A DNA stretch of 6,187 bases from a virus. Its lineage: Duplodnaviria > Heunggongvirae > Uroviricota > Caudoviricetes. The stretch spans positions 1 through 6,187 of IMG/VR virus record IMGVR_UViG_2671181111_000004; one strand, given 5' to 3'. A model generated the notes under the pieces. That model ran no database searches. It saw only the letters and a program-made list of their open reading frames with translations, and was not told the DNA's origin. A program made the translations under genes and the position numbers. Below are positions 4,454-5,081 of this stretch, piece by piece (position 1 is the stretch's first letter; every line of letters begins with the position of its first letter).

Positions 4454-4783
4454 ATGAACTACACTATCGAATACTACAGTGAAGAGGTCCGACTGGAGGT
4501 CGATCAGCTTCCATTGAGTATGCGTGCCAGATACCAGCATCTTGTTGAACGCATGAAGGTATACGGCAGCAATCTCGGAGAACCTCACACCAGCGCCTTT
4601 GGTGACGGGCTTTTCGAACTCAGAATTAAAGGCAACGATGGGATCGCGCGTGTTTTTTACTGCACTCTGACAGGGAAACGCATCATCATGCTGCATAGTT
4701 TTGTAAAGAAAACGCAGAAAACACCGCCAGCCGAACGCAAGAAAGCTGAAACCAGAATGAAGGAGGTTAAGCATGACTGGTAA
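4454..4783 (+). CDS. RelE/ParE-superfamily toxin, Gp49/HigB-like
   Basis: 109 aa from ATG 4454. The C-terminal region (GDGLFELRIKGNDGIARVFYCTLTGKRIIMLHSFVKKTQKTPPAERKKAETRMKEV) matches the Gp49-like/HigB pattern (LHxFxKKTQKTP). Its stop overlaps the downstream gene by 11 nt. No clear Shine-Dalgarno; the start is chosen by homology extent. Confidence 0.8.
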   Translation: MNYTIEYYSEEVRLEVDQLPLSMRARYQHLVERMKVYGSNLGEPHTSAFGDGLFELRIKGNDGIARVFYCTLTGKRIIMLHSFVKKTQKTPPAERKKAETRMKEVKHDW

Positions 4784-5081
4784 ACGCACTCTCCCCACCA
4801 TGACACACGACGAAATGGCAGCCAAATGGATGGAAGACCCGGCTTTTAAAGCAGAATACGACGCTATCGCTGACGAATTCGCACTGCTTGATGAAATGCT
4901 GGCAGCACGCAAAGGAGCTGGCTTAACTCAGGCTGAAGTTGCCGAGCGAATGGGAACAAAAGCGACCGCGATCACCAGAATGGAAAGTAATCTCGCATCA
5001 GGTATCAGCGGCCCATCATTTGCCACACTAAAAAAATTCGCCCGCGCTACTGGAAAAAAACTCCAGATCCGCTTCGTTTAA
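4773..5081 (+). CDS. XRE-family helix-turn-helix protein, HigA-like antitoxin or transcriptional regulator
   Basis: 102 aa; AGGAGG 6 nt upstream of ATG 4773; helix-turn-helix motif GLTQAEVAERMGTKATAITRMESN; gene order toxin then HTH partner as in HigBA-type modules. Confidence 0.8.
   Translation: MTGKRTLPTMTHDEMAAKWMEDPAFKAEYDAIADEFALLDEMLAARKGAGLTQAEVAERMGTKATAITRMESNLASGISGPSFATLKKFARATGKKLQIRFV

Follow-up and report, generated by a model that had tools for sequence, protein, structure and literature searches.

The window, that is, the whole 6,187-nucleotide stretch of DNA that was analysed, holds a decaying lambda-like prophage remnant bounded by IS elements, which lie at both of its ends (positions 1-316 and 6123-6187). 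Over the shared stretch, the locus was 99.92-99.98% identical to three complete genomes, including CP032513 (S. flexneri SFL1520). The helicase gene of the remnant is truncated, and the O-like replication-initiator gene is frameshifted at about position 3025. Inside this remnant a small gene pair, a toxin gene followed by a gene for an XRE-type helix-turn-helix (HTH) protein, is transcribed rightward between leftward phage genes, as the first-pass annotation had described. The ninE and ninB genes are located on one side of the pair, and the genes for a Rha-family regulator and for DnaC-like and DnaB-like proteins occupy the minus strand on the other. The features at the locus are as follows.

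3572-4429, minus strand: gene for a Rha-family regulator, in which an Ash-like N-terminal domain (about 4390-4106) is followed by the Rha domain (about 4075-3806)
4418-4423, plus strand: candidate -35 hexamer (TTGTGC)
4426-5109, plus strand: the whole mobile cassette (putative moron) of 684 bp, with promoter/operator, toxin, antitoxin and terminal hairpin
4428-4443, no strand assigned: palindrome ATAAC-N6-GTTAT, predicted antitoxin operator
4441-4446, plus strand: candidate -10 hexamer, TATGTT, overlapping the right arm of the palindrome
4454-4783, plus strand: toxin gene, 109 aa, Gp49/HigB-type, RelE/ParE superfamily, matched at full length by Pfam PF05973
4565-4605, no strand assigned: crossover interval within the toxin gene, codons 38-51
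4760-4766, plus strand: strong Shine-Dalgarno sequence of the antitoxin gene, AAGGAGG, within the 3' end of the toxin gene
4773-5081, plus strand: antitoxin gene, 102 aa, XRE-type HTH
5089-5109, plus strand: terminal hairpin GCGCCGUCA-UUC-UGGCGGCGC, with a 9-bp GC stem, marking the 3' edge of the cassette
5123-5299, minus strand: ninE (Pfam NinE, E 4.2e-43)
5296-5706, minus strand: ninB (Pfam NinB, E 2.5e-56)

The assignment of the first gene to the Gp49/HigB-like toxins, made earlier from the letters alone, was borne out by a profile search, in which PF05973 matched the protein end to end; the alignment spans positions 2-90 of the 90-position profile and scores 91.4 bits (cut-off 23.9; E 3.8e-26). 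The AlphaFold2 model of the toxin had a pLDDT of 94, and Foldseek matched it to HigB, HigB1 and RelE structures with a probability of 1.0 and TM values up to 0.77. The top solved structures were HigB of S. pneumoniae (6AF3/6AF4) and ribosome-bound HigB1 of M. tuberculosis (7NBU/7AWK), with TM values of 0.72-0.77, and the modeled toxin has a RelE-like fold. Residues E55, R57, R66, F83, K85, Q88 and K89 aligned with published catalytic residues. Among 40 homologues these positions were invariant or at least 90% conserved except Q88, where the toxin carries the consensus residue. The protein is predicted to be a ribosome-dependent mRNA endonuclease. Membership of the Gp49 family is no guarantee of activity, because the M. 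tuberculosis paralogues HigB2 and HigB3 were non-toxic in one study (PMC9098466).

In the second protein, a conserved N-terminal extension (residues 10-40) precedes the HTH domain (HTH_3, residues 44-98, E 3.7e-10), and the chain ends in a short C-terminal tail. The extension contains the conserved motif TH.E....W..DP.FKAEYD and is predicted to bind the toxin. The AlphaFold2 model (pLDDT 81) places helices at residues 12-21, 23-49, 53-60, 64-76 and 83-93. When this model was searched by fold, generic XRE folds were the only matches, with E values above 0.01. Compared as a profile with solved structures, the antitoxin matched S. pneumoniae HigA best (6AF3_B, E 3.4e-7), and M. tuberculosis HigA2 and HigA3 matched as well. 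The absence of an S24 domain, noted previously, was upheld, as the Pfam profile search matched none in this protein; no S24 domain was recorded in any of the 120 antitoxin homologues listed, which range from 71 to 144 aa. One residue, G48, is a private change (E48G, position 4915), and residue 48 belongs to a variable column.

The toxin gene overlaps the antitoxin gene by 11 nt, and the toxin-first bicistronic order with an adjacent small HTH antitoxin is conserved. An antitoxin homologue lies directly 3' of the toxin gene in 106 of 110 distant loci, and the same gene pair recurs in distant bacterial genomes of diverse taxonomy. Purifying selection on both genes is strong, with dN/dS values of 0.02-0.14 in the nine comparisons with meaningful dS. 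These values and the pairing in distant loci indicated that the pair does not consist of chance open reading frames.

The upstream signals were compared in 60 copies of the cassette. Both arms of the palindrome were invariant in all 60, while its central 6 bp varied, and the motif ATAAC-N6-GTTAT matched only once in the window, where 0.08 matches were expected by chance. The candidate -10 hexamer, kept in 57 of the 60, overlaps the palindrome; the candidate -35 retained the form TTGnnn at the same register in every copy despite differing flanks, and the spacer between the two hexamers was fixed at 17 bp. A scan for consensus promoters and terminators flagged neither for the cassette, so the proposed promoter rests on its conservation across the 60 copies; by consensus it would be a weak sigma-70-type promoter. 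The invariant palindrome, which overlaps the -10 hexamer in 60 of 60 copies, is a candidate operator through which the operon may regulate itself, with antitoxin binding at this site as a prediction.

Only 7 nt separate the end of the -10 hexamer from the toxin ATG. This segment is hypervariable (11 variants) and pyrimidine-rich, and it holds no Shine-Dalgarno sequence. With no ribosome-binding site and so short an interval, the toxin mRNA is probably leaderless or near-leaderless and the toxin would be poorly translated. The Shine-Dalgarno sequence of the antitoxin was kept in all 60 copies. The anatomy of the cassette predicts a single invariant operator, and a probably leaderless toxin message beside a strongly translated antitoxin. 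At the other end, the terminal hairpin has a folding energy of -16.6 kcal/mol (z = -2.5), and its stem was kept in loci L003 and L004, where the altered stem bases still pair. No U-tract follows the hairpin in the window, so it could at best be a weak terminator or an RNA-stabilising end.

Comparison with other prophages revealed sharp limits. In the Stx phage POCJ13, in phage PhiR5_2 and in several E. coli prophages, similarity to the window begins at 4426 on the 5' side; in prophages that have the ash flank in common it begins at 4396 or 4107 instead. The 3' limit of cassette similarity was 5109 in every context, with unrelated flanking DNA beyond it. Among lambdoid prophages and Stx phages, the cassette occupies at least four distinct sites, its orientation was opposite to that of the neighboring genes in all 11 annotated contexts, and it was absent altogether from locus L001 and other close relatives of the prophage. 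It is also patchy and rare, being present in 31 of 5426 complete E. coli genomes. With discrete boundaries, a putative promoter and a hairpin of its own, varied phage backgrounds and absence from close relatives, the unit shows the features of a moron, and the earlier suggestion of a cassette carried in this way held up at the level of sequence, since the same boundaries recur in several unrelated phage contexts. We conclude that positions 4426-5109 very probably constitute a self-contained Gp49/HigB-HigA type II toxin-antitoxin operon, inserted as an inverted moron within the lambdoid rightward early/nin operon.

Whether the pair might simply be an ordinary chromosomal HigBA unrelated to the prophage had been raised beforehand. 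One half of this description stood, as the toxin-antitoxin family is ordinary and very widespread. The other half did not, since in the enterobacterial contexts examined this cassette lineage was found only in lambdoid prophages. A plasmid search yielded no close copy of the cassette; the only similarity, of about 68% at the DNA level, was to the antitoxin gene and came from plasmids of Salmonella and Acinetobacter. A literature search found no dedicated study of the cassette in Stx or lambdoid phages.

The DNA on the 5' side proved to be mostly coding. Positions 4136-4453 had been put forward as an upstream region to which the HTH protein might bind, but most of this stretch encodes, on the minus strand, the Ash-like N-terminus of the Rha protein. 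Phage_ASH (PF10554, E 5.3e-12) and Phage_pRha (E 1.2e-26) matched in a single reading frame, and as far as position 4416 the gene agrees at 99.8% with an annotated gene of 286 aa. At the position where relatives start this gene, ATG, GTG and TTG are all absent here, and database gene calls begin it either at an ATA (4427-4429), within the palindrome, or at a GTG near 4587. Regulatory DNA 5' of the toxin start can be only about 24-36 bp long.

The unusual gene order, ninB-ninE-cassette-Rha-replication, could be traced to a single recombination event with its crossover within the toxin gene, as judged from 118 informative sites. Up to position 4564, the window agreed with the ash/Rha-type cassette (locus L094) at 36 of 36 informative sites; from 4606 onward, it agreed with the ninE-type cassette (locus L101) at 81 of 82. 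On this pattern of sites, the toxin gene here is a chimera of two alleles. The order would have arisen by homologous recombination between two prophage types, each already carrying the cassette. The ninE and ninB genes derive from the other parental prophage type, and L006, L011 and L101 share the ninE-cassette junction at about 97%. Species-representative genomes contained no exact 50-nt match to the Rha-cassette junction; the locus was found in IMG/VR and through an exact-protein look-up. We dropped a reading in which this junction lies within a purely defective remnant, because locus L175 has the same junction together with a complete early region. The cassette may be a portable homology patch that lets unrelated lambdoid prophages recombine, with one crossover documented here. 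A crossover within the toxin gene implies that passenger cassettes can seed prophage mosaicism.

Locus L175 also bears on the proposal that the 102-aa HTH protein is the immunity repressor, an S24-less analogue of cI sitting at the cI/rex position, with RecA-independent induction and the toxin as a rex-like partner. The protein is of the XRE family and is transcribed against the phage operons, as such a repressor would be. It also showed a weak resemblance to the RstR phage repressor family (25 bits, below the cut-off of 80) and to 434 repressor folds, and a lambdoid prophage with HigBAC beside cI is known (bioRxiv 10.1101/2024.02.24.581848). However, L175, which encodes the identical toxin protein and is 99.9% identical to the window over the Rha-cassette-ninE stretch, has a separate early control region about 3.8 kb away, with Cro, cII, N, cIII, kil and a 210-aa HTH+Peptidase_S24 repressor whose gene is divergent from the Cro-like gene. 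The site of the cassette is therefore not the cI/rex position, as had been supposed, but the delayed-early/nin part of the rightward operon, downstream of cI(S24)-cro-cII in L175. Four further cassette-bearing prophages also carry an S24-type cI, and the distance from cI-cro to the cassette was about 2.5-5 kb in L002, L003, L005 and L006.

The distribution of the palindrome argued in the same direction. ATAAC-N6-GTTAT occurred exactly once per prophage region, at the promoter of the cassette itself, and was not found in the cI-cro intervals of the prophage regions searched. The cI-cro interval of L175 contains three 14-bp ACAA/ACAG-N6-TTGT repeats, which are unlike it. At 10022-10037 in L175, upstream of N, the palindrome recurs with one mismatch; this copy was judged to be a chance match, as its right arm is broken and it lies outside the cI-cro interval. 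A cI-type repressor is expected between pL and pR and divergent from cro, with an S24 domain and multiple operators at early promoters, and none of these features was found for the HTH protein of the cassette. The presence of the same pair in diverse bacteria and the recombinant origin of the local gene order also speak against a repressor. Such a role is extremely improbable; as far as the sequences show, the cassette is not the phage immunity switch, and the analysis removes an S24-less immunity repressor as a tempting wrong lead.

The state of the remnant raises another question, namely whether the operon here is an inert leftover, silent or disabled, that persists merely until the remnant is deleted. 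Its surroundings are decaying, as seen in the flanking IS elements, the truncated helicase gene, the frameshifted O-like gene and the Rha gene without a normal start codon. Added to this are the chimeric toxin and the private change E48G in the antitoxin. In the sister locus L140, which is 99.9% identical, a frameshift within a T6 run disrupts the toxin gene, so decay of the module is possible in this lineage. Nonetheless, the operon here has kept both reading frames, its promoter/operator, the antitoxin Shine-Dalgarno sequence and the hairpin intact, the E48G change falls in a column that is variable anyway, and an index of public assemblies lists the identical toxin protein in 360 blocks. 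We consider an inert leftover unlikely.

A working toxin-antitoxin operon could operate as follows. Transcription would start from its own weak promoter (TTGTGC, 17 bp, TATGTT), the -10 hexamer of which overlaps ATAAC-N6-GTTAT. As a dimer, the HTH antitoxin would bind the palindrome, by itself or together with the toxin as co-repressor, and would repress only its own operon. The toxin would be poorly translated from a probably leaderless mRNA and the antitoxin well translated; the perfect AAGGAGG and the 11-nt overlap with the toxin gene would keep the antitoxin in excess, and its conserved N-terminal segment would hold the toxin inactive. If the supply of antitoxin stopped, because the DNA was lost or because an infecting phage, for example, shut off transcription or translation, the toxin would be freed by proteolysis. 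By homology, the freed toxin would enter the ribosomal A site and cut mRNA by means of E55, R57, R66 and K85, leading to growth arrest.

The most likely role of such an operon is selfish stabilisation of the prophage segment, possibly with abortive-infection defence of the lysogen as a second function. That defence is instead the main selected function, with phage shut-off or antitoxin loss freeing the mRNA-cutting toxin and aborting the infection, is a less probable reading that deserves some weight. The moron anatomy, the location in nin/early DNA, which is variable among temperate phages, and the rare, patchy occurrence are in keeping with it. So is the protection that prophage-borne HigBAC confers against lambda-vir and Bas25 (bioRxiv 10.1101/2024.02.24.581848), and the toxin core matched the C-terminal part of the PADLOC model NsnC (E 7.6e-10). 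However, the cassette lacks a sensor component, as there is neither a SecB-like chaperone gene nor a chaperone-addiction tail on the antitoxin, which ends directly after the HTH domain. Moreover, no PADLOC model fits the pair as a system; apart from the toxin-domain match to NsnC, PADLOC gave only weak HTH matches, and NCBIfam gave sub-threshold matches only. We also considered a function for the inverted orientation itself. Induction of the prophage, or readthrough of related early transcription, would produce antisense transcription that collides with the weak, leaderless higBA transcript and silences it, the supply of antitoxin would stop, and the toxin would act as a timed shut-off of translation in the host or as an abort switch; we regard this as improbable. 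If it is true that the cassette defends against phages or stabilises remnants, this would bear on the persistence of decaying Shigella prophages.

Among known systems, gp49 of phages N15 and phiKO2, the founding member of the Pfam Gp49 family, is 46% identical to the toxin over residues 15-105. It is likewise carried by temperate phages, and its RefSeq label is a type II RelE/ParE-family toxin. However, N15 and phiKO2 are not integrated lambdoid prophages bearing the cassette, and the position in the genome differs. They are linear plasmid-prophages, in which a toxin-antitoxin pair would serve plasmid maintenance.

The best match in sequence and fold, for both proteins, was the HigBA system of S. 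pneumoniae (6AF3/6AF4; PMC7984235). There too the toxin gene comes first and the toxin has an extra C-terminal helix, and residues E66, R68, R73, F90 and K92 of its HigB correspond to E55, R57, R66, F83 and K85 here. Its HTH antitoxin binds the promoter of its own operon at palindromes (PMC7984235), of which there are four, in contrast to the one in the cassette. The identity between the two systems is only about 20-25%, and the S. pneumoniae system is a Gram-positive chromosomal locus that is not described as a phage-borne cassette. HigB1 of M. tuberculosis (7NBU/7AWK), a ribosome-dependent cutter of A-site codons (PMC9098466), belongs to the same Pfam family as the toxin and resembles its model with TM values of 0.75-0.77; its E66, R68, R77, K95, Q98 and K99 correspond to E55, R57, R66, K85, Q88 and K89. 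However, the M. tuberculosis system requires a SecB-like chaperone and an antitoxin with a chaperone-addiction tail, and the cassette has neither.

The plasmid HigBA of Acinetobacter baumannii is also a toxin-first operon with a Gp49-domain RNase toxin, and its HTH antitoxin represses a single operon promoter with the toxin as co-repressor (PMC5906591). In contrast to the cassette, it is plasmid-borne, its identity is low, and a leaderless arrangement is not described for it. The Gp49 family as a whole has been surveyed as toxin-first, ribosome-dependent mRNA degraders (PMC11980606). For the idea of an addiction or abortive-infection moron, the nearest precedent is HigBAC in a lambdoid prophage of E. 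coli NT1F31, a HigB-type system with demonstrated phage defence (bioRxiv 10.1101/2024.02.24.581848), to which we liken the cassette by description only. HigBAC adjoins cI at the rex position, whereas the cassette lies in the nin/early operon. The third gene of HigBAC encodes a chaperone that senses a tail protein, whereas the cassette has two genes, and beyond the stop codon of the antitoxin gene come the hairpin and, on the other strand, ninE. Overall, the kind of system is already well known, and the cassette represents a compact, sharply bounded HigBA-type unit that is mobile among lambdoid prophages, Stx-converting ones included, in E. coli, Shigella and Edwardsiella.

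The gene content of the window agreed with the descriptive part of the first-pass annotation, which had placed a Gp49/HigB-like toxin and an XRE-HTH partner opposite to the flanking phage genes: the ORFs, profile matches and flanking strands were all as described. The claim that the HTH protein lacks an S24 domain also held, with no match to Peptidase_S24 in the Pfam scan of the 102-aa antitoxin. The two genes overlap by 11 nt. To the left of the cassette, on the minus strand, lie a Rha-family gene, a 77-aa ORF, and O-like, DnaC-like and DnaB-like helicase genes. The cassette genes and their right-hand neighbours are as follows.

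4454-4783, plus strand: toxin ORF, 109 aa; Pfam Gp49 (PF05973), whole profile matched, E 3.8e-26
4760-4766, plus strand: perfect antitoxin Shine-Dalgarno sequence AAGGAGG, 6 nt 5' of the antitoxin ATG
4773-5081, plus strand: antitoxin ORF, 102 aa; XRE-type HTH_3 profile match at residues 44-98
5123-5299, minus strand: NinE, right of the cassette
5296-5706, minus strand: NinB, right of the cassette

A 97-aa ORF (5703-5996, minus strand) overlaps the ninB start and had no match in the Pfam scan of the window. Its 92-aa version in sister loci carries a precomputed match to PF26207 (Phage_phiTE_015), and the VL40 prophage has an annotated 'phiTE_015 family protein' close to ninB.

The cassette behaved as a discrete unit. 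In BLAST comparisons of the window, similarity to related loci always ended at 5109 and began at 4426, or at 4396 or 4107 where an ash-type flank was shared; the flanks were otherwise unrelated. The cassette is rare, occurring in 31 of 5426 complete E. coli genomes, always on the chromosome and never on a plasmid, and no close copy was found in the plasmid collection. Every annotated context examined was a lambdoid prophage or phage, with the cassette opposite to its neighbours in each. These were Stx phage POCJ13, PhiR5_2, and prophages of strains C5, A34, RMDEC465, S1-CAM-02-A, SW071611, 2012C-4502, JNEC-KY176 and VL40. The twin of POCJ13, phage 75/02 Stx, matched over the same coordinates (sequence match only). 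At least four insertion contexts were seen: 3' of a Ren-like gene and 5' of an antirepressor and ninB; immediately after ninE, ahead of an antirepressor; with a DUF4222 gene on one side and an ash/Rha gene on the other, upstream of replication genes; and the arrangement of the window itself. Close relatives of the left flank without the cassette also exist, such as E. coli O121 locus L001 (99.8% identity over 317-4416). The several contexts and the cassette-less relatives indicate moron behaviour, and with the conserved ends and unrelated flanks they bear out the earlier suggestion of a toxin-antitoxin module carried as a moron.

Sixty cassette copies, taken from genomes of E. coli, sequenced phages, Edwardsiella and contigs in IMG/VR, were compared for the promoter-side signals listed below; the last entry is the hairpin at the other edge of the unit.

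4418-4423: TTGnnn hexamer, present in 60/60 copies, although the site lies at or outside the boundary of the common sequence
4428-4432 and 4439-4443: palindrome arms ATAAC and GTTAT, invariant in 60/60 copies
4441-4446: candidate -10 TATGTT, in 57/60 copies, with the spacer fixed at 17 bp
5089-5109: GC-rich 9-bp hairpin at the 3' edge, -16.6 kcal/mol

The 6 bp between the palindrome arms vary among the copies. This arrangement suggests a weak promoter with an operator covering its -10; the consensus promoter scanner did not call a cassette promoter. The 7 nt between the -10 and the toxin ATG were hypervariable (11 variants in the 60 copies), pyrimidine-rich and never ribosome-binding-site-like, and the antitoxin AAGGAGG was retained in all 60. 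Judging from these features, the transcript would start at or beside the toxin AUG, and the toxin message is probably leaderless. Such a message would be poorly translated and the antitoxin efficiently, giving antitoxin excess in a toxin-first operon. The terminal hairpin was kept in diverged copies, in which altered stem bases still pair; in the window it is not followed by a U-tract. Individual copies also showed local changes. In L010 (4175-4480), the E. coli JNEC-KY176 locus, the hairpin end is replaced, and the gene directly after the cassette antitoxin is a further 'HigA family addiction module antitoxin', unrelated to it. In some copies the toxin has decayed. In L140, a 99.9%-identical locus, one T is lost from a T6 run (window 4653-4658), so that the toxin is frameshifted and cut to 71 aa (L140 6001-6326). 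In four further loci (L005, L007, L137 and L138), ATA replaces the toxin ATG, and an in-frame ATG lies 12 nt upstream within the -10.

The stretch 4136-4453 had been proposed as an upstream region, but it proved to be mostly coding. On the minus strand, 4106-4390 gave an Ash-family match (PF10554, E 5.3e-12) in the reading frame that also holds the Rha domain, and in L001 the counterpart is annotated as a single 'Rha family phage regulatory protein' of 286 aa. At the start position used by its relatives, the window has no ATG, GTG or TTG; the ATG of related locus L004 is ATA here (4427-4429), within the left palindrome arm. Database calls place the start at this ATA or at a GTG near 4587 that lies antisense within the toxin gene, and public annotations disagree on the length (285 aa or 338 aa). 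Only ~24-36 bp separate the divergent Ash-Rha and toxin starts. The Ash-Rha frame stays open across the whole toxin gene to 4912 (3572-4912), and this extension is probably a non-coding antisense frame. Ash-family genes are found as tandem paralogues whose 5' ends are nearly identical (L094 5240-5963 versus window 4349-4416). One extra ash unit of ~590 bp lies between Rha and the cassette in L094, which has an ash/Rha-type cassette, and is not in the window; the difference is consistent with a deletion or duplication between repeats.

The other earlier reading, an S24-less immunity repressor at the cI/rex position, was examined in L175, a relative with 99.9% identity to the window over 321-5299. 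Onward along its minus strand lie ninB, a DnaB-type helicase gene, an O-like gene, DUF2740, cII and a 71-aa Cro-like gene. Facing these is a 210-aa repressor with HTH and Peptidase_S24 domains, beyond which lie N, cIII and kil. This layout puts the true switch ~3.8 kb from the cassette, which is thus not at the cI/rex position. The cI-cro interval holds three 14-bp ACAA/ACAG-N6-TTGT repeats, which resemble phage 434 operators and are unlike the cassette palindrome. S24-type repressors divergent from cro-like genes were also found in POCJ13, PhiR5_2 and the C5 and RMDEC465 prophages, and likewise in the cassette-less O121 prophage. The ATAAC-N6-GTTAT palindrome occurred once per region searched, at the cassette itself, and none of the listed antitoxin homologues (71-144 aa) had a recorded S24 domain. 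Together these observations left the immunity-repressor reading unsupported, and it was rejected. The exact window toxin protein occurred in 360 index blocks covering public assemblies, L175 among them.

The gene order of the window is a product of recombination. In an alignment of the window with L094 and with L101, which has a ninE-type cassette (118 informative sites), the window was identical to L094 at each of the 36 sites through 4564 and to L101 at 81 of 82 sites from 4606 on. By this pattern, a single homologous crossover within the toxin gene (codons 38-51) joined two prophage types. The crossover accounts for the order ninB-ninE-[TA]-Ash/Rha-O-like-DnaC-DnaB, with a toxin that is chimeric yet intact. 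L175 has the same nin/TA/Rha join, which places two replication modules in series in one operon (L175 1-9288). The first comprises an O-like gene and a DnaB-type helicase gene, with ninB-ninE-TA next; the second, after Rha, comprises O-like, DnaC-like and DnaB-like genes.

The window was 99.92-99.98% identical to three complete ~4.5 Mb genomes, over 1-6123 in two and 67-6123 in the third. One, CP032513, is Shigella flexneri 3b SFL1520 (PMC6424224), and the remaining two accessions are cited in Shigella papers. The prophage fragment is flanked on both sides by insertion sequences (1-316 and 6123-6187).

1-66: end of an IS3-family element
67-316: 3' end of an IS66-family transposase gene, which truncates the DnaB-like helicase gene at its 3' end
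6123 onward: IS911

Sister loci L140 and L173 have a complete IS66 element and no IS911 at the corresponding site. Compared with L001 and L097, the O-like gene (2448-3361, minus strand) has lost 1 nt near 3025, and the resulting frameshift, common to L140, splits it into ORFs 2990-3361 and 2448-2678. In L001 the gene is intact (302 aa, 'LvrA C-terminal domain-related'). The truncation and the frameshift mark the prophage remnant as decaying, and the cassette is among the units still intact in it. In sister loci, the toprim primase/helicase gene upstream of ninB (L176 5989-8332; L140 7602-9895) has weak LAGLIDADG_3 and Hom_end Hint matches, which hint at an intein or homing-endonuclease insertion; the L140 gene is split into two ORFs.

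The toxin-antitoxin pair is genuine: it belongs to a known family and is maintained by selection. Toxin homologues number in the thousands and are almost all 107-111 aa long, supporting the start at 4454. Of 110 distant loci with a toxin identity of 38-67%, drawn from metagenome bins and from genomes of diverse taxonomy, 106 have an antitoxin homologue immediately after the toxin on the same strand. Between cassette copies, dN/dS was 0.02-0.14 for both genes (nine comparisons with meaningful dS). The AlphaFold2 model of the toxin (pLDDT 94) best matched S. pneumoniae HigB (6AF3/6AF4), then ribosome-bound M. tuberculosis HigB1 (7NBU/7AWK), with TM 0.72-0.77 across these HigB structures, and after them RelE proteins. 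In profile alignments, the catalytic residues of M. tuberculosis HigB1 (E66, R68, R77, K95, Q98 and K99) and S. pneumoniae HigB (E66, R68, R73, F90 and K92) lay opposite residues of the window toxin. The putative equivalents are E55, R57, R66, F83, K85, Q88 and K89; in 40 homologues each of these except Q88 is invariant or conserved to at least 90%. In the antitoxin profile search, S. pneumoniae HigA was the best relative of solved structure, and M. tuberculosis HigA2 and HigA3 were among the XRE proteins that came next. The antitoxin is predicted to be helical, and a segment ahead of its HTH (TH.E....W..DP.FKAEYD) is conserved.

The system is an uncharacterised member of a well-known kind, and it has three modest points of interest: the cassette ends are conserved, the toxin is probably leaderless, and a crossover has been mapped within the toxin gene. 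We propose a classical type II HigBA-like circuit, in which the cassette would be autorepressed at its single operator, antitoxin excess would be set by translation, and a ribosome-dependent mRNase would be freed once antitoxin supply failed. The benefit may lie in stabilising the prophage segment, in defence against phages, or in neither. Its constant antisense placement in the early operon might, speculatively, couple it to prophage induction. The namesake of the Pfam family, phage N15 gp49, is 46% identical to the window toxin, and Gp49/HigB-type systems are described as toxin-first, ribosome-dependent mRNA degraders (PMC11980606). In an Acinetobacter operon, the HTH antitoxin autorepresses with the toxin as co-repressor (PMC5906591). 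HigBAC of a lambdoid prophage, which defends against phages (bioRxiv 10.1101/2024.02.24.581848), differs from the window cassette in having a chaperone sensor.
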